The position numbers and the translations under genes were made by a program. Shown in pieces: positions 1,669 to 37,909 of a stretch of 56,223 bases of DNA (positions are counted from its first letter, which is position 1; each line of letters opens with the position of its first letter). The DNA lies in NCBI GenBank assembly GCA_947628475.1, contig CANRAB010000001.1, positions 1-56,223 of the forward strand. The letters are read 5' to 3'. A model generated the notes under the pieces. That model was not told the origin of the DNA, did no database searches, and saw only the letters and a list, made by a program, of their open reading frames with translations. The stretch is from an uncultured Clostridia bacterium (lineage in GTDB: Bacteria; Bacillota; Clostridia; TANB77; CAG-508).

Positions 1669-3174
1669 CTAAAATAATGGTGCAAATAATCTTAAGATGG
1701 CTTGCCATAAAGACTTGATAAATCCTGCTTTTACTTCTTTATCATCTAATTTTTTACAGTCTTTAAAAGTTTCCTCAAAGTCGCTTAATATTTTCTTTAT
1801 CTCGTCAACGCCTTCCATATAAATTCCATTTTCAAAATGAAGATATAAACTTCTATAATCCATGTTTATTGTTCCAACTACTGCTCTAATATCATCTGAT
1901 AAAAATACTTTTGAATGAACAAATCCATTTGTATATTTGTAAATTTTTACACCATTATCATGTAATACTTTAAAGAATGAAGTTGTTTGTGTATAAACTA
2001 TTTTTTTGTCTGGAATTCCTGGTACTACTATTCTTACATCTACCCCTCTTTTAGCTGCTCTACAAAGTGAGTTAACAATATCGGTGTCAATTATTAAATA
2101 TGGCGTCATTATATATAGATAATTTTTTGCACTATTAATAATATTAATATAAACATCTTCACCTATTAAATCTTTATGAAGTGGAGCAACTCCATACGGA
2201 ATAACATAACCATTATTTTTATCATTATTATCAAAATTATATTTGAATTTTGTAATATCTTTGTCCTCATTTATATTAGCATTCCACATAGTTAAAAACA
2301 TAACTGTTAAGTTCCAGATTGCTTCTCCCACAATTTTTATTCCATTGTCTTTCCATATACCTAGTTTACTATTAACATTTATATATTCATCGCTTAAATT
2401 TACACCACCAGAAAAAGCTACTTTTCCATCTATAATAGTCATTTTTCTGTGATCTCTGTTATTCATGAATATTCCTCTAAAAGGACTTAATTTATTAAAT
2501 GGTATACATTTTATACCGTAACTCGCCATCTGTTTTGAAAAACTTGTTGAAAGCATCGCAAGACTTCCCATATCATCATACAATACTCTAACATCTACGC
2601 CTTTAGCTGCTTTTTCTTTTAATATATCCAAAATGCCATTCCACATAGTACCTTCATTAATAATAAAATATTCCATAAATATAAATTTTTCTGCTTTTTT
2701 TAACTCTTTTAATAACTCAGGATAAAACTTTTCACCAAAATTATAATATGTAATATCATTATTAGTACTTACAAAATAATTTGTCCTATTTATTAAGTAC
2801 TTAATATTATCCAATTCTTTATTATCTATATCTTTTTTTATTTTTTCTTCTTGTACTAGATATTTACTATATTTCTTTTCATATTCAAATATATTTTTTA
2901 ATAATTTGTTTTTAGAGTAATTTCTTCCTAAAGTAATTAATAAAATAGTTCCAAATATTGGAAATATTAGAATTAATATTACCCATGGTAAATCATTTGA
3001 AAGTCTAGTACTGTTCTTTAATATTCCAAGGACAATTAAAATACTTGCAATATTATAAAACAATGTAATAATTCCAAGATACTTATAGAAAAATAATCTT
3101 ATAATGATTGCAAATCCAAATTGCAAAATGACACCGATTGCAACTATTAAAGCTCTTTTTACTGCATTTAACAT
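1669..3174 (-). CDS. cls: cardiolipin synthase
   Basis: 501 aa with N-terminal TM helices and two PLD HKD motifs (HRKMTIIDG... and HSKVFLSDD...). Confidence 0.9.
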   Translation of the reverse strand: MLNAVKRALIVAIGVILQFGFAIIIRLFFYKYLGIITLFYNIASILIVLGILKNSTRLSNDLPWVILILIFPIFGTILLITLGRNYSKNKLLKNIFEYEKKYSKYLVQEEKIKKDIDNKELDNIKYLINRTNYFVSTNNDITYYNFGEKFYPELLKELKKAEKFIFMEYFIINEGTMWNGILDILKEKAAKGVDVRVLYDDMGSLAMLSTSFSKQMASYGIKCIPFNKLSPFRGIFMNNRDHRKMTIIDGKVAFSGGVNLSDEYINVNSKLGIWKDNGIKIVGEAIWNLTVMFLTMWNANINEDKDITKFKYNFDNNDKNNGYVIPYGVAPLHKDLIGEDVYINIINSAKNYLYIMTPYLIIDTDIVNSLCRAAKRGVDVRIVVPGIPDKKIVYTQTTSFFKVLHDNGVKIYKYTNGFVHSKVFLSDDIRAVVGTINMDYRSLYLHFENGIYMEGVDEIKKILSDFEETFKDCKKLDDKEVKAGFIKSLWQAILRLFAPLF

Positions 3175-3234
3175 TACATAACATCCTTTCTAAATTTAAA
3201 ACATAGGTAACTATTATTTAGTTACCTATTCCAG

Positions 3235-3699
3235 TTAAAATTTATATTGATTTTTGTCTGCTCTTTCATCAAAATTTCTATCATATTCTGTTGTTCCATA
3301 AAACCAGTCTGTTTTTCTATTCCTTACGCTTCCCTTTTTTCCACTGCTTAATCCTATATCCATAACTGCAAGTAATGGTATTATTACTGCTATTAATGAT
3401 ATGAATAATGTAATATAATTTCCGGTTTGTGATGTTCCATTCATTATCATTTCTATTGATTTATACGCATCTACCCCAAAATATGCACACTGTGCAATTA
3501 GATATATTATAGCTCCTAACATTTTTCTCTTAGCTACTAGAACTATACATACAAAAGTTATAAATAGCAATACAAATTCAAATGTTACATTCATTGGTAC
3601 AATAGCAAATCCTGAATCTGTAGAATATAATAACATTACTAATACTCTAAAAAGCCAAAATACTCCACCAAGTGCTGTAATAAAATAACCAAACATCAT
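3235..3699 (-). CDS. hypothetical integral membrane protein
   Basis: 154 aa with about four hydrophobic helices. No recognisable motif. Confidence 0.4.
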   Translation of the reverse strand: MMFGYFITALGGVFWLFRVLVMLLYSTDSGFAIVPMNVTFEFVLLFITFVCIVLVAKRKMLGAIIYLIAQCAYFGVDAYKSIEMIMNGTSQTGNYITLFISLIAVIIPLLAVMDIGLSSGKKGSVRNRKTDWFYGTTEYDRNFDERADKNQYKF

Positions 3700-3835
3700 T
3701 TTTCCCCCTTTTTTATTATTTATTTACATTTATTTTAAATGTTATTTTATAAATTGTCAATATTTTTATTCTTAATTTATATGTTATAATTTTCTACTAT
3801 TATTAAGTTGTTAGAAATATGATATATGCAAATTT

Positions 3836-4696
3836 TTAATCTATTATAACATCTCTTTTTAACAATTTATTACTTACTGTCCCTAATCCTAAAAATTTAT
3901 TACCATTATATATACGATAAACATTATCTTCATTATTAATTGAAAGTTTCACACCATTTAAAAATAATTCAGTTTTTTTATCATTTAAAACTATTTTACA
4001 TTTTTCCACAAATACATCTTCCACAGGTATTATTTTTTCGTTTACAATATCTATACCTTTTTTTCTTATCTCTTCAATTGTTACAGATTGTTCTATCTTA
4101 AAATTATCTACATTTAGTCTACACAATTTTTGCATAACTCCTATTGTTCCAAGTCTTACTGCTATGTCTTCGCAAAGTTTTCTAATATATGTTCCTTTTG
4201 AACATTCTACTTTAAAAATTATTACTTTTCCTTCAAATTTTATTAAAGATATTTGTTTTATTTCTATTTCTCGAGGTTCAATGTTTACTATTTTACCTTC
4301 TCTTGCATATTCATAGGCCTTTTTACCATTTATTTTTACTGCTGAATATATTGGTGGTGTTTGTTTTTGTTTTCCTAAAAAGGTCTTTAATACTTGCTTA
4401 ATTTGTTCTTCACTTAAGTTTGGTACACCTTTGGTTTCTATTACTTCACCTTCTAAATCCCCTGTTGTAGTTTTTTCACCTAATTTTAATTCTGCCATAT
4501 ATGTTTTATTATGTTCAATTAAATATTTTGAAATTTTTGTTGCTTGTCCTATTAAAATTGGAAGTACACCCGTTGCTTGAGGATCCAATGTTCCAGCATG
4601 TCCTATTTTTTTAATATTTAACTCTTTTCTTAAAATATTTACTATATCATGTGAAGTATAACTTTCTGGTTTGTTTACTATTAAAACTCCATTCAT
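3836..4696 (-). CDS. truB: tRNA pseudouridine(55) synthase TruB
   Basis: N-terminus MNGVLIVNKPESYTSHDIV...GHAGTLDP with the catalytic Asp motif. Located in the nusA-infB-rbfA-truB synteny. Confidence 0.95.
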   Translation of the reverse strand: MNGVLIVNKPESYTSHDIVNILRKELNIKKIGHAGTLDPQATGVLPILIGQATKISKYLIEHNKTYMAELKLGEKTTTGDLEGEVIETKGVPNLSEEQIKQVLKTFLGKQKQTPPIYSAVKINGKKAYEYAREGKIVNIEPREIEIKQISLIKFEGKVIIFKVECSKGTYIRKLCEDIAVRLGTIGVMQKLCRLNVDNFKIEQSVTIEEIRKKGIDIVNEKIIPVEDVFVEKCKIVLNDKKTELFLNGVKLSINNEDNVYRIYNGNKFLGLGTVSNKLLKRDVIID

Positions 4697-4744
4697 CTCT
4701 GTCTTCCTTTTCTTATGTCAAAGCATTTTTATTATAAATACTAA

Positions 4745-5692
4745 TTATTTTAAATTATTTTTACATTCTGTTACTATTTTTTCTTTGGCTTTTTCAAATG
4801 GTAAAGATATACTTCCACCTGCTGCTCTAATATGTCCTCCTCCATTAAATAATAAACATATATCAGATACATTTACATATTCATTTGATCTTAATGATAT
4901 TTTATACTCATCATCTGCTACTTCTCGTAAAAATATAGACACCTCTACACCTTCTATATCTCTTCCCATCTCTACAATTCCATCATGATCTTCACTTTTT
5001 GTTTCTTCCTCGTCTTTTCTTGTTATATATGTAAACGCTATTTTTCCATCTTCTAGCAATTCTAGTCTATTCATTGCTATTCTTCTTAATTCAAATTTTT
5101 CTACTGGAACTGTTTGCAAAACTTTTTTATATATATTAGATACATTAACCCCTCTATTTAGTAGTTCTGCTGCAAATTCAAATGTTTCAGCTTTTACACT
5201 TTGATACTTGAATCCTCCTGTATCTGTAATTATACCTGTTAATAAGCATGTTCCTATTTCTTTTGTAATTTCTATACCTAAAGCGTTTAATACTATTACC
5301 AATATTTGACAGCATGCTGGTGCTGTTGGATTAACAAAATTATAATCTCCAAACATTGTATTTGCCTCATGATGGTCTATTGAAATTTTACAATTTGCAT
5401 CTTCAAAATAATTTGCAAAACCATTTAATCTTTTTATATCTCCACAATCTAAAGCTATTGCTAAATCATAATTTTCATTTTTGCCTTCTTTTTTTATCTC
5501 TTCAGCAAATGGTAGGAAAGAATATGTTTTAGAATATTTTGGTATTACAACATCCACATTTTTTCCTATTTGTTTTAAGCCTATATACATTGCTAAACTA
5601 CTTCCTATGGCATCTCCATCAGGGACATCATGTGTTAATATAACAATATCTTTCGCTTTATATATTTCTTCTTTAATATTATCTAAAGTCAT
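4745..5692 (-). CDS. nrnA: DHH/DHHA1 family phosphoesterase (NrnA-like oligoribonuclease/pAp phosphatase)
   Basis: HDVPDGDAIGS, LDCGD, SIDHHE and GGGH motifs. Conserved position between rbfA and truB. Confidence 0.85.
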   Translation of the reverse strand: MTLDNIKEEIYKAKDIVILTHDVPDGDAIGSSLAMYIGLKQIGKNVDVVIPKYSKTYSFLPFAEEIKKEGKNENYDLAIALDCGDIKRLNGFANYFEDANCKISIDHHEANTMFGDYNFVNPTAPACCQILVIVLNALGIEITKEIGTCLLTGIITDTGGFKYQSVKAETFEFAAELLNRGVNVSNIYKKVLQTVPVEKFELRRIAMNRLELLEDGKIAFTYITRKDEEETKSEDHDGIVEMGRDIEGVEVSIFLREVADDEYKISLRSNEYVNVSDICLLFNGGGHIRAAGGSISLPFEKAKEKIVTECKNNLK

Positions 5693-5736
5693 TATTACCT
5701 CTCTTTTCTGCCAAAATTGGCTTCTTTTCTTCTTTG

Positions 5737-6108
5737 TTAATTTTCAGGTTTAATATCCTTCATAATTTTCTCTAATATTGAATCTATTTTTTCACCATAT
5801 ACTAGACTTTCATCTAACTCAAATACTAACTCTGGTGTTATTCTTAAATTCATCTTTTCTGCTATTCTACTTCTTATAAAGCCTGAAGCTGATTTTAAAC
5901 CTGCAAGTGTTTGCTTTACATTCCTTGAATTAATTATACTAACACTAACTTTAGCATACTTTAAATCAGGTGATGTTTTTACTTTTGTAACACTTATCAT
6001 TCCTGTAACATTTGAATTTTTTACCTCATAATTGATTATACTACTTAATTCTCTTTTTAATTCCTCATTTACTCTAGCCATACGGTTAGAATTATTACTT
6101 TTTTGCAT
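5737..6108 (-). CDS. rbfA: 30S ribosome-binding factor RbfA
   Basis: 123 aa with RVNEELKRELSSII... and synteny downstream of infB. Confidence 0.9.
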   Translation of the reverse strand: MQKSNNSNRMARVNEELKRELSSIINYEVKNSNVTGMISVTKVKTSPDLKYAKVSVSIINSRNVKQTLAGLKSASGFIRSRIAEKMNLRITPELVFELDESLVYGEKIDSILEKIMKDIKPEN

Positions 6109-6159
6109 TTTTCACTCTCCAAGTTTTTTATTTTTATAAAGTTTGAAACATTATGAACT

Positions 6160-9144
6160 TTACTTTATTTGTTCCATAACAAAGGCTTCGATTATATCTC
6201 CCTCTTGAATATCATTAAAGTTCTCAATTTGAATTCCACACTCATACCCTGCTGCCACTTCTTTTGCATCATCTTTCATTCTCTTTAATGAGATTAATTT
6301 TCCATCATGTATTACTACATTATTTCTTAATACTCTAACTCCTGCATTTCTTGCAACTTTTCCACTTGTTACATAGCATCCAGCAATTGTTCCTACATTT
6401 GATATTTTAAATGTCTGTCTTATTTCTGCATTACCTATAATTACTTCTTTATATACTGGATCTAACATTCCTTTCATTGCTGCTTCTACATCTTCTATTG
6501 CATTATAAATTACTGAATATATTTTTATTTCTACTTGTTCTTTTTCTGCCATATCTTTTGCTATTGGTTCAGGTCTTACATTAAATGCAATTATTATAGC
6601 GTTTGAAACTTTTGCAAGTGTAACATCTGTTTCTGTTACTGCACCAACATTTGCATGAATTACTTTTACTTTTACCTCATCGTTAGATAATTTTTCTAAT
6701 GATTGTTTTACTGCTTCTACTGAACCTTGAACATCTGCTTTTACTATTATATTTAGTTGTTTTAAGTTTCCTTTAGCAATTTGGTTAAATAGGTCATCTA
6801 ATGTTACTCTATTTGTAGCATTTAAAGCTTTATCTCTTGCTTGACGTTTTCTCTTTTCTATTAAATGTTTAGCAGTTTTTTCATCTTTTACCTCATAGAA
6901 AGTTTCTCCTGCTTCTGGCACTTCTGTAAATCCTGTTATTTCAACTGGTGTAGATGGTCCTGCTTTCTTTAATTTTTTACCTTTTTCATCTGTCATTGTT
7001 CTTATTCTACCTATTGTAGAACCTACAAGTATAGTATCTCCTACATCTAATGTTCCACGTTGTACTAGCATTGTTGCAACTGCACCTTTAGATTTATCTA
7101 ACTTCGCTTCTATTACAACACCTTTTGCTTGTTTATTTGGATTTGCTTTTAATTCTTTCATATCTGCAACTAATAAAACCATTTCTAAAAGTGTATCAAT
7201 ATTTTGCTTTTTCTTTGCAGAAATCGGAACAAATATTGTATCTCCACCCCATTCTTCTGGTACTAGTTCGTATTCCATTAATTCTTGTTTTACTCTATCT
7301 ATGTTTGCACCTTCAACATCTATTTTGTTTATAGCTACTATAATTGGAATACCTGCTGCTTTAGCATGATTTATTGCTTCTACTGTTTGTGGCATTACTC
7401 CATCATTTGCTGCTACTACAAGTATAGCTATATCTGTAATTTGTGCACCTCTTGCACGCATTGCTGTAAATGCTTCATGTCCTGGTGTATCTAAGAATGT
7501 TATTTCTCTATCTTTTACTTTTACCTTATAAGCTCCAATATGTTGTGTAATTCCTCCTGCTTCTCCTTCTATTACGTTTGTTGACCTTACAGCATCTAGA
7601 AGTGATGTTTTACCATGATCAACGTGTCCCATAACAACTATTACTGGTGGTCTTGGTAATAAATCTTCTGGTCTGTCTTCACTATCATCAAATAGTATAT
7701 CTTCATCTGTTACAACTTCTTTTTTGTTTGCTGTAATTCCAAATTCTTGTGCAATTAAAAAAGCGGTATCAAAATCTATTTCATTATTTATAGTTGCCAT
7801 TATTCCATAATTAAATAATTTCTTAATAATTTCACTACTAGTTTTCTTTAATTCTGTGCTTAAATCTTTTACAGTTATTGTTTCAGGAATTGTTATTTCC
7901 GTTAATTGGAATATTTTTTGTTTGTTTCTTTCTTCTTGATTATTATTTTTCTTTTTGTTCTTTTTTCCTCTAGCAGTTGTTAAGTCATAATAATCTAACA
8001 TAGAACCTTCATCAAACATTCCTGAAAGTCCTCTTTCTTGTTTCAAATCTTTTAGTTTATGACTGCTGATTTCTTCGTAATTATTTCTTCTATTTTTATT
8101 TCTTTTTGCTGTTCTATTTTCATCAAATTTACTATTATTTTTTTGTTTATCTATTGCTTTATTAGCATATTCTCTAACATTTTCTTTTTCACCAATATCA
8201 GCAGCCATTATGTTTTTAATATTTTTTTCTATTCCTCTTTCATCAAGGCTTCTATTTTGTTTATTATAGTTGCCACCATTATTTCTATTGTTGAATGGTC
8301 TATTATTTCCTTGTTGTCTATCTCTGTTAAAGTTATTATTACGGTTACTATAATTATTTCTGTTATTGTAATCCCTATTATTATTTGAATTAAAGTTTCT
8401 ATTCATATTATTAAATGGTCTTTTTTGTCCATTATTATTGCGATTTGAATTATTATAACCTGAATTACTATAATTTTGATTATTATTTTGGTTAGTATTA
8501 TAATTTTTATTTTGAGTATTATTATAATTTCTGTTTTGAGTATTACTATTCAAACTTATATTAACGTTAGTATTTTGCACAGTTTTTATACTTTCATTCT
8601 TATTTATTTCTTTTCGTTCTTCATCTTTTTTTACCTCTACTGCTGCTGTAGGAGTTTGTTTAGCAGTTTCAACAGCTTTTTCTTTGTTTACTTCTTCTTT
8701 TGGTTCTTCTTTTTTGCCAAACAATTCACTAACAGTAAGAGGTTTTGTTGGTTTATTTCTATACACAATATTGTAGTCTTTATTTCTTCCACGCTCTATC
8801 ATTCCAACATCTCTGTTTACATTATTTTCTTGTTTTCTTTCTTTTTTATTTTTATCTTCATTCTCCTCTACTATCACTTGTCTTCTAATTATTACTGGTT
8901 CCTCTTTTGCTTCTTTTTTAGGTCTATTCTCTCTTACTTTTTTTGTCTTTTCATCATTTTTTGATATAGCTTTATTTTTAGAATAACTATCTTCTATCAT
9001 CTTTGCCTCTTTTTCTTCAATTCCACTTAAATGTGATGTTGCATCTATTCCAAGTTTCTTTGCTCTTTCTAAAATTTCTTTACTTGTTAATCCCATTTTT
9101 TTTGCAATCTCATGGATTTTTACTTTATTACCCAATAATATCAC
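6160..9144 (-). CDS. infB: translation initiation factor IF-2 (with long Asn-rich N-terminal insert)
   Basis: GTPase motifs [20 protein letters not shown] and NKID, plus a conserved C-terminal domain. 994 aa. Exact start uncertain. Confidence 0.95.
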
Positions 9145-29704: not shown

Positions 29705-29948
29705 TATAAAATTCCCCCTTCTTTAGTAAATAGAAAAATATTTTTCTAAATTTCGTTTTGATAAATTTTATCATATAAAAAATAATTAATCAACATATTT
29801 TTATCTTTTTGTTAAATTTTGCTTTTCACTACCACTTATATTAAATTTCTATAAAACATTTGCTAATTTTATAATATAAATTCTTTATCACTTTTTGTAT
29901 ATTATTATCATATTATGTACTATACATTAAAAAAAGGAGGAATTATTA

Positions 29949-30299
29949 ATGTATAGAAGACAGTGTAAATGTAATTGCAATTATAATAACAACGATGTTG
30001 CTTCTGAATATGATAATTGTTTAGAAGACTCTTGCACAGATGTTGAAAATACTCTTGATGCTTACGATGATTGTAATTGTGGTTTTGATGAAAGCAGCCA
30101 GTTTCCAGAAAATCCTGTTCTAGCTCAAAGTTATGTTCCTATTCAAACTATGGATAGAACATTCATGCCTTGTGTTGGATTAAAAATGGGAACAATTTAT
30201 CCAGAGCTTGTAAGTCCTTATATGCCTGGTCAATCTATGGCTGAAATTGAATATTTAAAAGCTAGAAATACTATTGGGGAGGGATGTAATAAATGTTAG
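29949..30299 (+). CDS. cotJA: spore coat-associated protein CotJA
   Basis: AQSYVPIQTMDRTFMPCVGLKMGTIYPELVSPY is a typical CotJA core. AGGAGG RBS. Followed by cotJB and cotJC. Confidence 0.8.
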   Translation: MYRRQCKCNCNYNNNDVASEYDNCLEDSCTDVENTLDAYDDCNCGFDESSQFPENPVLAQSYVPIQTMDRTFMPCVGLKMGTIYPELVSPYMPGQSMAEIEYLKARNTIGEGCNKC

Positions 30300-30658
30300 A
30301 TTCTTGTAATGATAGAAATTGTAATTATAAATGCGATTGCAATAAAGATGAAATGCCTGAAGACACTCTACCTACCATGGAACTACCTGAGAGAAAAGAA
30401 TGTCCTAGAGATTGCAAACGTGAAGAAATGATTATGAAAATTAAGGAACTAAATTTCGGAGTTATAGAACTTGCTTTATATTTAGATACTCACCCAGATG
30501 ATAGAAAAGCTTTATGTTTGCATAATAACTATGCAAAACAATTAAAAGATTTAAAGGATAAATATCAAAAAGTTTATGGTCCTCTAACTATTAACTATCC
30601 TTGTAATAAGTGGAGATGGCTTGAAGAACCTTGGCCATGGGAAAGGGGGAATTATTAA
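30293..30658 (+). CDS. cotJB: spore coat protein CotJB
   Basis: ELNFGVIELALYLDTHPDDRKAL...YGPL motif. Overlaps cotJA by 7 nt, and the stop overlaps the cotJC ATG (TAATG). Confidence 0.85.
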   Translation: MLDSCNDRNCNYKCDCNKDEMPEDTLPTMELPERKECPRDCKREEMIMKIKELNFGVIELALYLDTHPDDRKALCLHNNYAKQLKDLKDKYQKVYGPLTINYPCNKWRWLEEPWPWERGNY

Positions 30659-30864
30659 TGTGGACTTATAATAAAACTTTAGAGTACCCAATAAATATAA
30701 AATGTACAAATCCAAAGCTTGCTAAATTCATTATCTCTCAATACGGTGGTCCTGATGGAGAACTTGCCGCTTCTCTTAGATATTTATCTCAAAGATTTGG
30801 TATGCCAGATCAAAAGTCAAAAGCGATTTTGAATGACATTGGTACTGAAGAATATGCACCCTAG
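30658..30864 (+). CDS. cotJC: cotJC 5' segment (Mn-catalase-family spore coat protein), interrupted after codon about 64
   Basis: MWTYNKTLEYPINIKCTNPKLAKFIISQYGGPDGELAASLRYLSQRFGMPDQKSKAILNDIGTEE, then unrelated YAP-stop. It matches the CotJC N-terminus up to DIGTEE; the expected continuation (L/F)AHLEM is found at 37489. Confidence 0.85.
   Translation: MWTYNKTLEYPINIKCTNPKLAKFIISQYGGPDGELAASLRYLSQRFGMPDQKSKAILNDIGTEEYAP
30841..30860. other. attL (deduced): GGTACTGAA-GA-ATATGCACC
   Basis: Point where cotJC homology stops. Central GA at 30850..30851. Confidence 0.55.
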
Positions 30865-30978
30865 GAGGTCGTTTGTTGATAAAATTAACAAACAATCTCC
30901 TAAAATGACCTCATTGGAAGCAACATGTCAAAAGTAATCGTTTAAAATGTATATCAAAAAATAATATAACAACGATTT

Positions 30979-33384
30979 TTAATCTCTAAATAGCTTGTGT
31001 ATTATATTTTCTTCATCACTTTTTTTATATAATAAATCAGCATCATAAATATACTTTTTATAGTATGTATAATCCTCTTCTGGTGTATTGTAAACATAAT
31101 TTATATATTCTAGCACAATTTTTTTTATTTCATTATTATCAAAACTCCATTCTCCTACTTCTGGATATTTCATTCTTTCATATAATTCATCTGGCAATTC
31201 ACAATATATTTTGTCTAACATATCTTGTATCCCTCTAGAAACTACTTCTATAAATTCTTTTTTTACCTCTTCAATTAAATCTGTCTTGAAGTCTTCTTCT
31301 GTACATTCATTCCACCTTTCATCATATTCATAATCACTTTTTAATTTTTCTATCTCACATGCTACTATATCTTCTAATCCATAATCTCCTGCAAGTTCAC
31401 TCATTAAATATGCATTTGGTTCTTTTTCAAATTCTTTTTGCAAATATTCTATTAAAATTTCTTCATTTTTCATTCTTCTATTTTGTTTATTTTCATAAAT
31501 GTATAATAAAAATTCTACTTGATTATCTAGGTTTTGTTTATTTAAAATTTTTGATAATGAATCTCCTTCAAAAAAAATCTTCAAAATTTGTTCTTCACTT
31601 AATTTTTCTGAATCCCATAATTTTCTTAAAATACTATATTGTCCAATATATTCATTTCCTATATCATATCCAGATGTCAATTTAAATACTGTACTAACTA
31701 CATCAATTTGATTTATTTTATCTGTCATATTATAAAATAAAATATGTGCTAAATAAAATTCAGAAATATCCCTATTGCTAATTGTATTTAAATTTAAAAA
31801 TTCATTTTTAGTAATCTTTTCTCTTGTGAATTTTTCATATATATCTTGTGAACCTGAAAATCTTTTTATTTGTTCAATAAATTTCGCTGAACTTAAAATT
31901 TTTCTCTTTTCTAATTCATTTTCTTTTAATTCTTCTCTTAAAAAGTCATTAACACTGGGGTTAATTGTCATTATTAATTTTTTATTGTCTTTAATAACTA
32001 TCTTTATAAAAGATTGATTTAATCTTTCCAAAATATTATCAAATAAAGAAAAGGATGTGTCTATTTTTTCTTGTTTCAATCTTTCAAAAAATGCTAACCT
32101 CAATTGTTCCTCTTCAACACTATAATCCGATAGTGAAAATAATGTTATTAAAAATAATCTATCTTCTATAGATATCTTGTTTTCATATTCATCTTTCCAA
32201 ACATATTTAGACTTTTTAAATGCAGCCTGAATACTTTTTGCATAATTTTCTGGCTTTATATTTATATAATTTTTCTTTTCTGTTATATAGTCAATTATTC
32301 TAAGATTATAACTATTATCTTCTATTATTTTCATATAATTTTGATTTTTCAAAATAGATTGTATATATTCTTGAGGCACTTTTTTTTGTGATAAATAATG
32401 TTTTAAAATTCTTGCCTTTTCTAATTTCGAAATATTTTCAATATTAATTACTTGTATTTTTATGTTCTTATTATCAATAATTTTTCCTAGTTCATATTGT
32501 CTTTCTTTAGCTTCTTGAAATACTGTTATTCTGGAGTTTAATATTAATAGTTTATTAGAATATCGTTTTATATATTTGATTAAATTTATAATATCATTCT
32601 CTCTTTGTTCTTGTAAATCTAAGTATCTTTGACCTAAACAATCATCTAAAAAAATTATTTCTTTTTTTCCTTTATCTAATGATAATGATTTTTTCAAATC
32701 TTCCAAATTATGACTATTACTATATCTTACTAAATAACCATTTTGTACATAATACAATAATAGCATTTTAGACAATGTAGTTTTTCCAATTCCTGGCATA
32801 CCTAATATTAATAATAGTCTTTCTTTTTCTAGTATATTCTGACAAATTGAATATAAATCTGTTTGTACAAATAAATCTACTTCCTCTTTAATATTATCAA
32901 ATAGTATTTCACAGTCTACAAACACATTTTTATTTGTTATACTTTCTAAAATATTAGTTGAACATAACCATAGTTTTATATGTTTTCTTACAATATCACT
33001 ATATTCCTCTTTATTTAATATTTCATTAATTTCATTAATTGTAAAAATATTTTCTTTTGTTTTTAAGTAGTTTTGCAAAATTTCATATATTTTTTGTATA
33101 TTTTGAGGCGACATTTCTCTTCCTATAAAAAGATAATATTGTTCAATTTTTTTATTTGTTATTTTATTTGCTTCTTTTTTTATTTTGCTGACTGTATCAT
33201 ATTGAGATGTATTTTTATAGAATTTTACTTGTCCTATGATATTTTCATTATCATTTGCTTGAATATCTACTCCTCCATCTGCTCCTCTTCCAAATACTCT
33301 AAATGTTTTTCCTAACTTTTTTTCTAATATTTCCTTACATAATTCTTCAAACTCTATTTCATCTATATTCATGAAATTAAACAT
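30979..33384 (-). CDS. Mrr-like restriction-endonuclease domain fused to P-loop STAND-type NTPase with long helical C-terminus (Avs-like defence candidate)
   Basis: N-terminus FEELCKEILEKKLGKTFRVFGRGADGGVDIQ...IIGQVKFY (D...QxK nuclease core), Walker A LILGMPGIGKTTLSKM, Walker B EIIFLDDCLGQ, then about 450 aa of helical repeats. Confidence 0.6.
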   Translation of the reverse strand: MFNFMNIDEIEFEELCKEILEKKLGKTFRVFGRGADGGVDIQANDNENIIGQVKFYKNTSQYDTVSKIKKEANKITNKKIEQYYLFIGREMSPQNIQKIYEILQNYLKTKENIFTINEINEILNKEEYSDIVRKHIKLWLCSTNILESITNKNVFVDCEILFDNIKEEVDLFVQTDLYSICQNILEKERLLLILGMPGIGKTTLSKMLLLYYVQNGYLVRYSNSHNLEDLKKSLSLDKGKKEIIFLDDCLGQRYLDLQEQRENDIINLIKYIKRYSNKLLILNSRITVFQEAKERQYELGKIIDNKNIKIQVINIENISKLEKARILKHYLSQKKVPQEYIQSILKNQNYMKIIEDNSYNLRIIDYITEKKNYINIKPENYAKSIQAAFKKSKYVWKDEYENKISIEDRLFLITLFSLSDYSVEEEQLRLAFFERLKQEKIDTSFSLFDNILERLNQSFIKIVIKDNKKLIMTINPSVNDFLREELKENELEKRKILSSAKFIEQIKRFSGSQDIYEKFTREKITKNEFLNLNTISNRDISEFYLAHILFYNMTDKINQIDVVSTVFKLTSGYDIGNEYIGQYSILRKLWDSEKLSEEQILKIFFEGDSLSKILNKQNLDNQVEFLLYIYENKQNRRMKNEEILIEYLQKEFEKEPNAYLMSELAGDYGLEDIVACEIEKLKSDYEYDERWNECTEEDFKTDLIEEVKKEFIEVVSRGIQDMLDKIYCELPDELYERMKYPEVGEWSFDNNEIKKIVLEYINYVYNTPEEDYTYYKKYIYDADLLYKKSDEENIIHKLFRD

Positions 33385-33481
33385 ATCTCTTTACCTCATT
33401 TTCTATTTTCATATAATTGCATGTGATATTATATCATAAACATTACTCCAATGTAAATGTTTTATCTTATACAACAAGCCA

Positions 33482-35083
33482 TTAACCTGCTTTATTAATT
33501 TTAGGAAATAAATTTATAGTAAAGTTCGTTGGATCTGAATCTTTTCTTATTGATTTTTCTGTTTTTAAGTAGGTTACTTGTGCCAAAACTGTCTTTAATA
33601 AATCATTCTTTTCCTCTGGTGTTTTTAATAAATAATATACATCAATAAGATTTTGTAATTTAGGTACTAATACCTCTTTTCCTTTATCTGCTATTTCTTG
33701 CGATAATTTAGTTTTATATTTTTCAATAGAATTATTAATTCCTTCTATATTTTGTAATATTACCTCACTTCTTTCTTTAAACATTTCTTTTGTATATGTT
33801 CCATCTTCAAGGAAGTTAAATATATTTAACAATTTGTCATTTTCTCTTTTAGCTTCTATCTCTAATGATTTTATCGTTTTTTCAATAAATTCAATTTTAT
33901 TATGATTTACTTTAGCTATATGTTCTTGATAATCAAATCTATATTGTTCTAACCATTTTTTTAATCCATCTAAAACTTTTTCTTCTACAAAATGAAATTT
34001 TGATCCTACATTATCACATTTAGTATTCGCACAATATAAAGTTGGCTCTTTACTATATTTTGTGTATGACCTTCTTTTCATCTTTTGACCACATTTAGCA
34101 CAATATACTAAACCGCACAATGGATTTTGAATCATAGAGCAGTGTGTTACTGGTGCAGTATTATGGCTTCTTTTAGCCTGGGCAATTTTCCATGTTTTTT
34201 CATCTATTATAGCTTTATGCAATCCATCAACAAGTATATAATCATCATTTCTTGGTCTTGTATTTTTAAGTTTTTCATTTTTATAAACTTTAACAACTTT
34301 TCTTACATTCCATTTTATTTTACCTATATATACAGGATTAGCCAATATATCTTTTACACTAGCAACAGACCATTCATCATTTTTTCTAGGTTTTAATCCC
34401 ATTTCATTTAGCTTTCTTGTTACTTCATGTAATGATAAATTATCATAAGCATATAAATCATACATAATTTTAACAATACCTGCCTCTGAATTTTTTTTTA
34501 ATGTAAATCCCTTATCCCCTTTAATTTTAACTCTATCATATCCAAATGGTGCTATACTGCCTACATATTTTCCTTCATTAACTGATGAAATTCTCCCTCT
34601 TTGAAGTCTTCTATTAATTGTTTTATATTCTCTTCTGGACATAAATAAACCAAATTCGAAATATTCTTCATCGAATTCATCATTTGGATCATAAGTTTTC
34701 ATCGGTGTGATTATTTTAGTATCTGAAATTTTAAATGCCTTTGCTACAATTCCCTGATCCATTGTCTCTCCTCGAGCAAGTCTTTCAATTTCAACAACTA
34801 AAACACCTTTCCATCTTCCTCGTCTTACATCTGCTAATAATTTCTGAACTTCAGGTCTTGCCTCAATAGTTTCACCACTTACTATCTCCCTATATATTTT
34901 ACCTACTTTGATCTCTTTTTTATAAGCCAAATCTAATAATATTTTTTCGTGTCTAGCAAGAGTTTCCCCCTCTCCCTTTTCCTCCGCCTCCATGTCAGCT
35001 CTTGATTTTCTTAAATACATTGCATATTCACCAAAAATATCTACAACAGAATTATTTAAATCCCCATAATGTATATTTTCCAA
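33482..35083 (-). CDS. large serine recombinase (SpoIVCA/TndX-type)
   Basis: YLRKSRAD catalytic Ser motif, resolvase domain VVEIERLARG, recombinase domain, a zinc ribbon CGLVYCAKCGQKM...YCANTKCDN and a coiled-coil tail. The start is uncertain (TTG at 35083 or ATG at 35020). Confidence 0.9.
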   Translation of the reverse strand: MENIHYGDLNNSVVDIFGEYAMYLRKSRADMEAEEKGEGETLARHEKILLDLAYKKEIKVGKIYREIVSGETIEARPEVQKLLADVRRGRWKGVLVVEIERLARGETMDQGIVAKAFKISDTKIITPMKTYDPNDEFDEEYFEFGLFMSRREYKTINRRLQRGRISSVNEGKYVGSIAPFGYDRVKIKGDKGFTLKKNSEAGIVKIMYDLYAYDNLSLHEVTRKLNEMGLKPRKNDEWSVASVKDILANPVYIGKIKWNVRKVVKVYKNEKLKNTRPRNDDYILVDGLHKAIIDEKTWKIAQAKRSHNTAPVTHCSMIQNPLCGLVYCAKCGQKMKRRSYTKYSKEPTLYCANTKCDNVGSKFHFVEEKVLDGLKKWLEQYRFDYQEHIAKVNHNKIEFIEKTIKSLEIEAKRENDKLLNIFNFLEDGTYTKEMFKERSEVILQNIEGINNSIEKYKTKLSQEIADKGKEVLVPKLQNLIDVYYLLKTPEEKNDLLKTVLAQVTYLKTEKSIRKDSDPTNFTINLFPKINKAG

Positions 35084-35134
35084 AATATTTCCCTTCTTTA
35101 CTGATTATTTTATATATGGTCAAAAATATAATCT

Positions 35135-35272
35135 TTAATAACATTCTAAAATTTTTTTCATAATTAGCGTTAATAAAATATCTATTATTTCCTGTTCTTC
35201 TTCTTTCGTTACAATGTTTCTATCATCAACCCTTATTATTGTTTTATCACATTTGTATTCTTCAATAATCAT
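35135..35272 (-). CDS. 45-aa ORF directly upstream of the recombinase (candidate recombination directionality factor)
   Basis: Own translation (too short for the track): MIIEEYKCDKTIIRVDDRNIVTKEEEQEIIDILLTLIMKKILECY. AGAGGTG RBS 8 nt upstream of the ATG. 51 nt gap to the recombinase start. Confidence 0.35.
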   Translation of the reverse strand: MIIEEYKCDKTIIRVDDRNIVTKEEEQEIIDILLTLIMKKILECY

Positions 35273-35371
35273 TTAATATACACCTCTATAAATATATATT
35301 TAAATATAAAAATAAAAGAACATTAAGATATACTTAATATTCTTTCAGAACATGATAAAATTAACAATTTA

Positions 35372-36037
35372 TTATTTCTTTAAAACTCCACATTCTTTCA
35401 ATATTTGCTCAACACACTTATTAATTGTCAAATCTGGATTTTCAGTATAATATTTAAATTTTCCATATATTTTACATTTATCTTTTGCGTTTTCCTCATT
35501 CATTTTCCTAATTTCATTACCATTTTTCACAGCACAAATTACATCTTCTAATTCTATCTTTTGTAATATTCTTTTAAAATTTTTTTCTTCTTTATAATCG
35601 TCTATAAACTGAAATTTTTCATTATATGCTCCATTAATTCCATTTACATATTGTTTTCTATGAGATACTGAACCTTTTTGTTGTATTTTATGTAAAATCA
35701 TCCATAAGTCAAAAGAAAAATTACTATATCCTAATTTGTATTCAAGATTTTTATTTATTTTATTTACATTTTTCAGTTCATCTAAAACTCTATTAAATTG
35801 TTTTACATGCACTTCTTCATTACTTTCATAATCACAAATATGAAATACTTTAGTTGGTTTATATAATGCAGGTATTGACTTTGCTGTACTAATAATTGAT
35901 TTACTGATTTTAGAATAAAATTTAACTTTAAATAATAATTCTTCTTTATTGTTTATTAATTCTTGCAATCTTTCAAAATACCATTGTTCTGTTTCACCTT
36001 CAACAGATAAATAATATTTATTACATATTTTTTTCAA
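35372..36037 (-). CDS. RloB-like (AbiLii-like) protein
   Basis: N-terminal YYLSVEGETEQWYFERL resembles the RloB CEGxxTExxYF motif. 221 aa. 4-nt overlap with the upstream ATPase gene. Confidence 0.55.
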   Translation of the reverse strand: MKKICNKYYLSVEGETEQWYFERLQELINNKEELLFKVKFYSKISKSIISTAKSIPALYKPTKVFHICDYESNEEVHVKQFNRVLDELKNVNKINKNLEYKLGYSNFSFDLWMILHKIQQKGSVSHRKQYVNGINGAYNEKFQFIDDYKEEKNFKRILQKIELEDVICAVKNGNEIRKMNEENAKDKCKIYGKFKYYTENPDLTINKCVEQILKECGVLKK

Positions 36038-37344
36038 TCTTTATTTTCCTCTCTTTCGTCGTTTTTAAAAATATTTGAAAAATCAATATCTCTTATTGCT
36101 CCATATTTATTAATAAAATAATTTTTCATATAATCTTCTGTATTTCTTACACCTTTAGTTCCATTTGTACCAAAGTCTGATAAAGAATACAAAATACTAC
36201 CTTTATCCTCATTCTCTACAAATTTTATTTCATCTCTTCTTAATAAAGCATTATTTAAAAATATTGGATTATGTGTATTAAAAATTAATTGTGCTCCCTT
36301 TGTATTGATTTCATCATTATGAAAAATATTGATTATATTCATAATCGCCATAGGATGTATAGAAGCATCAAACTCATCTACTACTAGTGTAGCTCCTGTC
36401 CTTATTGTCATTAATATTACAGGAAAAATATTCAAAAATCTTATGGTTCCAAATGATTCGAAAAATTCAGCAGGTATTATTGCTTTACCATTTTTATATT
36501 CAATCATTGATACAGGCTCTACAAGTTCATTATCTCCATTAATTGGATATGCAATCTGCTTTGATGTGAGTCCAAAATCTTTAATAGCTTTATTTAATGT
36601 TTTATCTATATAATACTTTTTTTTATTATTGTTCGATAGTATAACAGGGGAAAAATGTATCATATCTGCATGATAAATAATTCTATATTTATTCTTAAAC
36701 CAATCATAAATAATATCAAAAATCTTTTTACTATATAAGGTCTTAAACATTCCATTAAAAAATAATTCTTTATTATCTAAATTGGCAGTTGAGATTTTTT
36801 CCGCTGTTTCCTTTTCAAAATTTTCAATTAAAAAATCATTAATAGTATCAATTTTTCCAATCTCTACACTATTTTCTCTTCTATATATTAAAACATTATT
36901 TATATACAATTCTTCATTTACTATTTTCCTATCATATTCAGAATCAATAAATTCACCTAAAGCCAATGATAAATAAAATTCAATTACCATATTTTGTACT
37001 AAAAATTTAATATAAAAACTTACTGGCTCATTTTTTTCACTATTTATATTTGGTATAAGTTCTAATCTATCTACTGCTGTATTGAGAGTTGTCAATTTTT
37101 CTTTATTTTTTATATTACCATTTAATATAATAGAACGTAAAACATCCATGCCACCAATAATATTAGTTTTACCAGCAGAATTTGGTCCATAAATTGCCGT
37201 AGAAGATAAAGCTTTTACTTTTTTTCCTTTAATTTCTCTAACTATAATACTATATTCCAAATCTTTTTGTGGAGTAGGAATCATTTTTAAATTCATTTCT
37301 TCTCTGAAAGATTTAAAATTATTCATTTTAAATTCTAATAACAT
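36034..37344 (-). CDS. AAA_21/ABC-type ATPase (AbiLi-like)
   Basis: MLLEFKMNNFKSFREE..., Walker A IYGPNSAGKTN, Walker B LVVDEFDASIHP and QLIFNTHNP. Confidence 0.65.
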   Translation of the reverse strand: MLLEFKMNNFKSFREEMNLKMIPTPQKDLEYSIIVREIKGKKVKALSSTAIYGPNSAGKTNIIGGMDVLRSIILNGNIKNKEKLTTLNTAVDRLELIPNINSEKNEPVSFYIKFLVQNMVIEFYLSLALGEFIDSEYDRKIVNEELYINNVLIYRRENSVEIGKIDTINDFLIENFEKETAEKISTANLDNKELFFNGMFKTLYSKKIFDIIYDWFKNKYRIIYHADMIHFSPVILSNNNKKKYYIDKTLNKAIKDFGLTSKQIAYPINGDNELVEPVSMIEYKNGKAIIPAEFFESFGTIRFLNIFPVILMTIRTGATLVVDEFDASIHPMAIMNIINIFHNDEINTKGAQLIFNTHNPIFLNNALLRRDEIKFVENEDKGSILYSLSDFGTNGTKGVRNTEDYMKNYFINKYGAIRDIDFSNIFKNDEREENKD

Positions 37345-37478
37345 ACAACTCTCCTTTTTATTTGCAGTATTTTCGCAAACTTTATTTTTATTATACTATT
37401 ATTATGCTATTTAGTCAATATTTTATGCTAAATTATTGCAAGTTTTATATTTTTAGAAATCAAAACGATATCATTATG

Positions 37479-37498
37479 GAGCATACGAGCTAGCTCAC
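37479..37498. other. attR (deduced): GGAGCATAC-GA-GCTAGCTCA
   Basis: Point where cotJC homology resumes. Central GA at 37487..37488. Confidence 0.55.
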
Positions 37499-37909
37499 TT
37501 AGAGATGGTTGGAACAATAGTTCATCAATTAACTGATGGAGCATCAATAGAAGAAATTGAAAAAGCTGGTTTAGGTGCATATTATACTGACCGTGGTGTA
37601 GATGTATATCCTCAATCTGCTGGAGGAACTCCTTTTACAGCAGCATATATCGCATGCAAAGGCGACCCAATAGCTAATTTACAAGAAGATTTAGCTGCAG
37701 AACAAAAGGCTCGTGCAACATACGAAAAGTTAATTGACCTTTGCGGAGATGACCCAGATGTAATTGACCCTCTACGTTTCTTAAGACAAAGAGAAGTTGT
37801 TCACTTCCAAAGATTTGGTGAAGCTTTGCGTGGAGTTCAAGATAAACTTGCTGAAAAGAAATATTATATGAATGATATGAACTGCATGATGAAAAATGAT
37901 ATGAGATAA
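37489..37909 (+). CDS. cotJC: cotJC 3' segment
   Basis: (E)LAHLEMVGTIVHQLTDG...GDPIANLQEDLAAEQKARATYEKLI...LRFLRQREVVHFQRFGEAL carries Mn-catalase/CotJC motifs (EExAHxE, AEExAR, REVVH). It has no RBS or start of its own at the homology boundary. Confidence 0.85.

Follow-up and report, generated by a model that had tools for sequence, protein, structure and literature searches.

In the 56,223-nt stretch of DNA from an uncultured Clostridia bacterium analysed here (contig CANRAB010000001.1, positions 1 to 56,223; hereafter the window), the spore coat gene cotJC is interrupted by a 6.6-kb insert that encodes a large serine recombinase (LSR), and it is as good as certain that this insert is a cassette specific for cotJC and put in place by its own LSR. 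We further consider it probable, with the timing and the cell type inferred from the split gene, its promoter and the recombination genes, that the element excises developmentally, in the sporulating mother cell, and in doing so restores cotJC. The initial annotation of the window had described a cotJC split by an LSR element, with the dinucleotide GA at both junctions, deducible attachment (att) sites, a 2-bp crossover and an uninterrupted product of 204 codons on joining: all of these sequence statements hold, and the att sites and GA crossover are confirmed by comparative data on relatives.

The reading frame of cotJC is left at position 30851 and taken up again at 37489, after an insert of 6,637 bp, and GA stands at 30850-30851 and at 37487-37488. 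When positions 30658-30851 and 37489-37909 are joined, the resulting 618 nt are in frame and encode 204 aa and a stop, the protein running from ...DIGTEE directly into LAHLEMVG... across the junction, which places the insertion point at codon 65. In the integrated state the 5′ open reading frame (ORF) simply extends to a stop at 30862-30864. Of the Pfam Mn_catalase profile, the 5′ fragment matches positions 1-68 and the 3′ fragment positions 72-197, and the two are thus the halves of one domain. Indeed, uninterrupted CotJC proteins about 90% identical to the joined product are colinear with it across the junction, so that an in-silico GA x GA join, which represents excision at short repeats at the level of sequence only, restores a protein of the expected layout; the nearest uninterrupted gene (85% nucleotide identity) reads GGAACAGAAGAATTAGCTCAC straight through the predicted attB.

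The exact point of exchange can be read from the junctions themselves. In the window, GA is the sole identity common to attL and attR, and the bases beside it differ on both sides, which pins the crossover to this dinucleotide; serine recombinases cut with a stagger of two nucleotides, and a GA core is as expected. The predicted attB junction reads ...ATTGGTACTGAA-GA-GCTAGCTCAC... and the predicted attP junction ...TATGGAGCATAC-GA-ATATGCACCCTAGG.... In the reciprocal junction, GGAGCATAC-GA-ATATGCACC, seven of the nine innermost positions are symmetric, and 12 of 25 over the full arms; the dyad symmetry by itself is modest. The arm motifs, distal AAACGA and proximal GGWGCA, reappear in related elements, and the element arm of attL is kept in two of them (L003 and L004; related loci carry numbers with the prefix L throughout). 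With an imperfect dyad, a 2-bp crossover and conserved distal and proximal arm motifs, the att sites fit the serine-integrase type.

Relatives of the element were sought in a scan of one genome per species, in which at least 517 loci encode relatives of the LSR; the best 80 of these, with LSRs 45-84% identical to that of the window, were examined. Fragments of cotJ genes lie beside the LSR in 70 of the 80, with cotJC split at the same codon; without exception, codon 64 is the last of the 5′ fragment, and the 3′ fragment resumes at the same residue. Since 70 of 80 independent loci share this break, the association of the LSR with cotJC is not due to chance. The ten loci that lack a cotJ fragment lie on short contigs or belong to elements that are larger or more distant. 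An alignment of the junctions in relatives reads ...GATATTGGTACAGAA-GA-ATTAGCTCACTTAGAAATGG...; the element ends copy host sequence for up to about 16 bp in many elements, and only GA is common to all loci. The hosts are uncultured Clostridia and Clostridium metagenome-assembled genomes (MAGs), with others labelled Ruminococcus, Oscillospiraceae, Christensenellaceae, Caproiciproducens, Thermoanaerobacterales and Anaeromonas. Among viral contigs in IMG/VR, 17 of 80 (23-60 kb, with LSRs about 47-51% identical) abut cotJC fragments at the same junction, and the lineage therefore includes prophage-sized elements. Besides that of the window, 30 elements are complete: they measure 3.3-11.1 kb, have 24-30% GC, and hold one LSR with one to eight other genes. 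The window element had at first been thought unusual, a view that has to be given up, as minimal cassettes of 3.3-11 kb occupy this exact site in dozens of species.

What could make this codon so attractive a target? Ranked by nucleotide conservation, the 40 nt with the junction at their centre come 10th among 665 windows along cotJC, and they encode an E-E-x-x-H motif which we take to hold the metal ligands of the Mn catalases; if so, this would account for a stable target available in a broad range of hosts. The elements sit in the site in both orientations. Their LSR-proximal arm, CAAACGAC..., is joined to a GA core in L001 and to a TC core in the window, as seen when the att sites of L001, L006, L009, L010, L014, L044, L045, L046 and L050 are set against those of the window, and oppositely oriented elements in the same attB are closely related, with LSRs 84% and 81-83% identical to that of the window. 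This fits the established rule by which the polarity of a serine integrase depends on its central dinucleotide and on nothing else. With GA as the core in one set and TC in the other, element polarity has flipped during evolution.

The recombinase itself, of 533 aa, is intact. It matches three Pfam families (PF00239, 1e-13; PF07508, 7.4e-24; PF13408, 1.4e-05) and the PHROGs integrase family phrog_95 (5.1e-93), and a coiled coil can be read from its sequence. Ser27 lies within an invariant YLRKSR motif, and S27, R25, C328, C331, C351 and C356 are all invariant in the family alignment, which covers both catalytic and zinc-ribbon residues. The gene is full length and evolves at a ratio of non-synonymous to synonymous substitution rates (dN/dS, or ω) of about 0.1-0.2. 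Of the solved structures, that of the SPbeta integrase YokA/SprA comes nearest (E 4.1e-45, residues 22-524), and integrases of deposited phage genomes reach no more than 48% identity. A conserved ORF of 45 aa immediately precedes the LSR and is read from the same strand; it takes this position in all 47 genome loci where the LSR is at least about 52% identical and the upstream sequence is available. Its consensus runs M-[IL]-[ILV]-E-E-Y-x4-T-x-I-[RK]..., it has been called independently by the gene callers of other projects, and its family comprises 635 database clusters that carry no domain and no name beyond 'hypothetical protein'. The median pairwise dN/dS of the family is 0.52, and an AlphaFold2 model gives a β-hairpin and a helix with a predicted local distance difference test score (pLDDT) of 78. 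Weaker homologues are found in the more distant relatives of prophage size, a few kb from the LSR and on the opposite strand. The small ORF had been put forward alongside the recombinase from the start, and it now stands as a conserved partner of the LSR; from this genomic coupling we infer a candidate recombination directionality factor (RDF).

We posit that the element would stay integrated, with its cargo expressed, in the forespore as in vegetative cells. In the sporulating mother cell, the LSR, with the 45-aa protein as directionality factor, would recombine attL with attR across GA, releasing a circle of 6.6 kb and restoring the 204-codon cotJC, which would then be transcribed together with cotJA and cotJB from a σK-type promoter. 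Because the mother cell is a terminal cell, the spore line would keep the element. Across lineages, the cotJC-specific LSR family moves horizontally, keeping the module of 45-aa ORF and LSR and swapping its accessory cargo. Three things support mother-cell excision: cotJC halves that are intact and under selection, a σK-type promoter of the cotJ operon, and a recombination module that is intact and conserved.

Is the split gene still in use? Compared with the nearest uninterrupted gene, cotJC of the window has an ω of 0.09 (0.06 in the 5′ half and 0.11 in the 3′ half) and no stop codons, and all 21 of the interrupted cotJC genes reconstituted are intact ORFs, with a median ω of 0.125; both halves are under purifying selection. 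The change H99R in the window CotJC was considered as a sign of decay and set aside, the same change being found in 6 of 120 uninterrupted homologues. The same insertion recurs at 94-100% nucleotide identity in five further metagenome samples (ERZ27249519, ERZ27249283, ERZ27249530, ERZ27249541 and ERR10663727), with one copy spanning attR and the host flank, and the small ORF is intact and identical across the samples. No uninterrupted allele of this exact CotJC was found in a database of 5.8 billion proteins. With the insertion in five samples and no uninterrupted allele, the element looks fixed and stably inherited in the species.

The cotJ operon would also be expressed in the right cell. 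cotJA and cotJB lie directly upstream of cotJC, and a CATAT[AT]AT box lies 29-40 nt upstream of cotJA (60 nt in L009) in 17 of 19 related loci. In C. difficile, the mother-cell -10 boxes read CATATTAT/CATATAAT, with AC as the σK -35 element, and operons of the cotJB/cotD type depend on σK (PMC3789822). The box of the window matches both the -10 boxes and the -35 AC, making it a candidate σK-type, mother-cell promoter. Within the insert, a terminator-like hairpin separates abiLii from the small ORF, with equivalents at the same position in relatives, and as predicted it would end the cargo operon and insulate the recombination module from cargo transcription. Behind this hairpin, about 20 nt before the start codon of the small ORF, 20 of 26 elements (L004 and L166 among them) have a box of the type CATA[AC]A. 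The RDF gene of the C. difficile skin element, CD1234, is driven by σE from a transcription start site 14 bp upstream of its start codon, and the spacing of the box in relatives resembles this geometry. The spacer between small ORF and LSR (35084-35134, minus strand) holds a CATATATA box, a consensus match in AT-rich DNA, which may be a separate promoter of the recombinase; the corresponding spacers of L019, L025, L046 and others often hold a box of the type (C/G)ATATAAT. At 24% GC, such boxes are no more than hints, and general scans are uninformative: that for σ70 promoters gave 93 promoter-like matches against 69 expected, and that for terminators missed the AT-rich hairpin. Sporulation control of the recombination module is plausible from these boxes, and least clear for the copy in the window.

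A number of observations weigh against developmental excision. In the window and its near-identical copies from the five samples, the box before the small ORF reads AAATATAT, its C having been lost, and no convincing -35 element accompanies this box in any family member examined; the promoter evidence for sporulation control of the module is thus weak, and weakest in the window. For the 45-aa ORF, comparison with Pfam, PADLOC, PHROGs, PDB sequences and, by Foldseek, PDB structures gave nothing, and so it bears no likeness to a known RDF. This is to be expected, as known RDFs share neither sequence nor fold and are not homologous to one another. The predicted attB 24-mer, ATTGGTACTGAAGAGCTAGCTCAC, has no exact match in JGI metagenome contigs, a degenerate pattern for the attP of the family has none in metagenome and IMG/VR contigs, and among short contigs with close LSR homologues there are no circular forms, all being fragments of chromosomal junctions. 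As assemblies rarely capture a minority product of the mother cell, such absences are uninformative rather than negative. A frameshifted 5′ fragment of cotJC occurs in three of the 30 loci with both junctions (L027, L036 and L043), and is either genuine decay of the split gene or an error of MAG assembly. The divergence of LSR and CotJC is nearly uncorrelated (rho 0.16), with synonymous divergence (dS) of the LSR mostly below that of the host; the insertions could thus be of recent date, the elements pass from host to host, and how long cotJC has been split is not measurable. For the same reason, a co-divergence test for selection on cotJC while split failed. Finally, cotJ mutants of B. subtilis have mild phenotypes, so that a permanently split cotJC could be tolerated.

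Considering these points, we regard it as possible rather than probable that there is no developmental excision at all, and that the cassette merely shelters in cotJC, the gene being inactive while the element is resident and excision occurring sporadically, for horizontal transfer. The LSR family would then target a site that is highly conserved (hence its rank among windows along cotJC) and dispensable, and the horizontal movement of the elements, the lack of excision junctions in the assemblies searched, the state of the promoter evidence and the frameshifted fragments of three relatives would all follow naturally. Such a shelter does not sit well with cotJC halves that have stayed intact under strong constraint in almost every locus, nor with an insertion that appears fixed and yet has left the gene without decay. 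Moreover, several unrelated LSR families sit in this same σK-type operon, matching the known bias for mother-cell genes, and the closest LSR of solved structure is SprA. It is very unlikely that the insert is an immobile remnant, a decayed prophage or island unable to excise from a cotJC that is a pseudogene in this lineage: no phage genes are left, and in the lineage the -10-like box before the small ORF lacks its C, but the recombinase is of full length and retains every residue that is invariant in the family, both att arms keep the family motifs, the small ORF is identical across samples, and the gene halves show the constraint described above. An assembly chimera, or a pair of naturally separate genes, the first of them cotJC with its end at 30864 and the second starting at 37505 (the scenario named at the outset as the one that would overturn the split), is refuted by the same architecture in 70 independent genome loci and five further samples, by the contiguous Pfam coordinates and by the colinear uninterrupted homologues, with nothing in its favour except that the window is probably a metagenome-assembled contig.

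We now turn to what the cassette carries. Every gene of the insert lies on the minus strand (Table 1), and searches with Pfam, PADLOC and PHROGs profiles detected no phage structural or replication families in it, in agreement with the first description. That description had also assigned anti-phage-type genes to the element, and for the window this is borne out by the profile matches. abiLi and abiLii are adjacent, overlapping by 4 nt at 36034-36037, and by gene content form an AbiL abortive-infection system, and the protein with Mrr_cat and nSTAND3 domains matches PADLOC PDC-S73 (E 1.8e-97, profile positions 4-717 of 752), a candidate whose defence role is a prediction. The composition of the element becomes clear from L004, a 4.2-kb element that holds just the LSR, the small ORF and AbiL. 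Positions 2632-6600 of the window element align with it at 79% nucleotide identity, and the 57 nt nearest attL match it at 88%; the window element is thus an L004-type cassette with a segment of about 2.6 kb (30916-33482) bearing the PDC-S73 gene, which is not present in L004, placed between the LSR and attL.

Table 1. Features of the interrupted cotJ operon and its intervening element, by position in the window.
Feature	Position	Strand	Details
Candidate σK-type promoter of cotJ operon	29890..29916	+	AC (29890-29891), 17-nt spacer, CATATTAT (29909-29916)
cotJA	29949..30299	+	Pfam CotJA PF11007, E 4.7e-12
cotJB	30293..30658	+	Pfam CotJB PF12652, E 4.4e-27
cotJC 5′ fragment	30658..30851	+	codons 1-64 and GA of codon 65
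attL	30826..30876	+	host arm, GA 30850-30851, element arm ATATGCACCCTAGGAGGTCGTTTG
Intervening element	30852..37488	.	6,637 bp, 23.8% GC (whole window 27.1%)
Mrr_cat + nSTAND3 protein, 801 aa	30979..33384	-	Pfam nSTAND3 4.9e-37, Mrr_cat 5e-07
LSR, 533 aa	33482..35083	-	Resolvase, Recombinase and Zn ribbon
Conserved 45-aa ORF, candidate RDF	35135..35272	-	coupling to LSR
Terminator-like hairpin and U-run	35313..35347	-	RNA fold -14.4 kcal/mol, z = -6.0
abiLii (RloB family)	35372..36037	-	Pfam RloB 2.2e-12; PADLOC AbiLii 6.4e-12
abiLi (AAA_21 ATPase)	36034..37344	-	Pfam AAA_21 5.3e-24; PADLOC AbiLi 2.4e-69
Sigma-70-like promoter candidate, abiL operon	37390..37418	-	TTGACT-17-TATAAT, 11/12 consensus, best in region; AT-rich DNA
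attR	37463..37513	+	element arm AAAACGATATCATTATGGAGCATAC, GA 37487-37488, then host arm
cotJC 3′ fragment	37489..37909	+	third base of codon 65 to stop 37907-37909

Defence is only part of what the family transports. Its 158 cargo ORFs fall into 86 clusters, with defence-type genes (RhuM/PDC-S05, AbiL, ToxN, PDC-S23, SoFic, PDC-S01 and a pVip-like radical-SAM protein) alongside a sortase and its partner, EamA, MFS and ABC transporters, an M29 peptidase, a Big_2 surface protein of 1,982 aa and V-ATPase subunits. The idea of a cargo confined to defence is therefore right for the window and wrong for the family. In L004 and L034, almost identical CotJC proteins of 234 aa are interrupted at the same site by elements with different cargo, their LSRs 81% and 57% identical to that of the window, a pattern that points to independent insertion or cassette replacement.

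Intervening elements with mother-cell excision are well documented in the sporulation genes sigK, spsM, spoVFB, spoVR and gerE, with a related element reported in yabG, and the element of the window is best filed in this known class of LSR elements. Its target gene, too, has been listed before: in bioRxiv 10.1101/2021.11.22.469490, cotJC is named, with reference to Abe et al. 2013, as a target of phage, transposon or skin-like insertions, and bioRxiv 10.1101/2022.02.25.481979 briefly mentions a cotJC interruption in Laceyella sacchari. These earlier mentions concern the same gene, but are brief and in Bacilli. In the literature searched, we found no description of a Clostridia-wide family, of the exact GA site, of the 45-aa partner ORF or of minimal cotJC cassettes with defence cargo. 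What lifts the element above the routine is the size and uniformity of its family, the conserved ORF that is a candidate RDF, and the fact that relatives have several LSR slots in their cotJ operon.

A close parallel is skin in sigK (SpoIVCA in B. subtilis; CD1231 and its RDF CD1234 in C. difficile), likewise an LSR element that splits a mother-cell gene and restores its ORF by precise excision. Skin elements share no genes apart from the recombinase, which parallels the variable cargo of the cotJC family. A further likeness is the C. difficile RDF, a small acidic protein of 72 aa expressed from a σE promoter, although the small ORF of the window is unrelated to it in sequence. Skin elements measure 14.6-48 kb, whereas the window element is 6.6 kb long and free of phage genes, and its excision is a prediction. 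The target of skin is a sigma factor and that of the window element a coat protein, so that excision from cotJC would not gate the developmental programme. SPbeta in spsM (SprA/SprB) also pairs an LSR, the nearest solved homologue of ours, with a small RDF, and interrupts a late mother-cell gene for spore-surface maturation. It is, on the other hand, an active phage of 134 kb, its SprB (YotN) has no similarity to the 45-aa ORF, and the position of the small ORF immediately upstream of the LSR is unlike the SPbeta arrangement. An intervening element need not be phage-like, as gin in gerE of B. cereus demonstrates, for which an LSR and a small RDF (GirC/GirX) suffice; its attP, an imperfect inverted repeat around a central dinucleotide, is a further likeness to the window. 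In contrast to our element, gin measures 28.6 kb, has three recombinases, another target gene and another LSR lineage, and its cargo is not described as defence genes. Outside sporulation, SCCmec (CcrAB at orfX) likewise consists of small serine-recombinase cassettes with interchangeable cargo at one conserved site, with composite or tandem occupancy known, but SCC enters its target gene at the 3′ end and does not inactivate it, relies on a pair of recombinases without any RDF, and is unconnected with sporulation.

Should excision be true, cotJC could be added to sigK, spsM, spoVFB, spoVR, gerE and yabG among the genes rearranged in development, and no other such case would be as widespread in uncultured gut Clostridia. 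With the family comes a natural series of compact sets of LSR, att sites and candidate RDF around one 2-bp crossover, of use for integrase tools and for the study of polarity flips, together with an uncharacterised family of 45-aa proteins as RDF candidates. It also shows AbiL, PDC-S73, SoFic, RhuM and ToxN travelling on minimal cassettes, the cost of insertion being borne, if excision holds, by the terminal cell only, and it explains many 'pseudogene' annotations of cotJC in MAGs.

Relatives hold additional insertions in the same operon. Some lie inside the 3′ fragment of cotJC, after residue ~37, ~57 or ~71 of that fragment (inserts inside this part occur in L009, L011, L012, L014, L020, L029, L033, L035, L036 and L045), and others lie between cotJB and cotJC, at about residue 114 of cotJB (L018, L019, L020, L031 and L042). 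Most of those examined bring an LSR of their own, which belongs to a different family, is 516-543 aa long and in some cases contains DUF4368; that of L012 is split into two ORFs, and up to three elements are found in one cotJ operon. At the locus of the nearest uninterrupted cotJC (L081:5481-6618), the genes directly upstream lie on the opposite strand and cotJA and cotJB were not seen there, the result of either a differing operon context or another element between cotJB and cotJC. Could the cotJ operon of gut Clostridia be a docking platform with several slots, a sporulation-coupled system of cassette exchange with the new 45-aa RDF family as its switch? We think this improbable as it stands. 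Each of several unrelated LSR families would have its own fixed slot (the 3′ end of cotJB, codon 65 of cotJC and at least three further positions in cotJC), cassettes for defence, surface and transport functions would be carried only in the germ line, and their excision as circles while the mother cell lyses would repair the coat operon and at the same time set cassettes free for horizontal spread.

Several smaller observations remain. A 533-aa ORF with a TTG start at 54435-56036 on the minus strand, equal in length to the LSR, was considered as a second copy and proved unrelated (BLASTP E 0.1), and scans of the window for tRNAs and Rfam families gave no match. The 10.7-kb element of L050 (L050:885-11595) carries genes for V-type ATPase subunits (an ATP-synt_ab pair, AC39 and D), odd for a mobile cassette, and may represent a larger captured chromosomal segment. 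Among the cargo of two close relatives (L084:809-1546; L085:42-773 and 1184-1675) are weak or faint matches to Spo0A_C and a Sigma70_r4_2 protein, possible regulators that might be related to sporulation.

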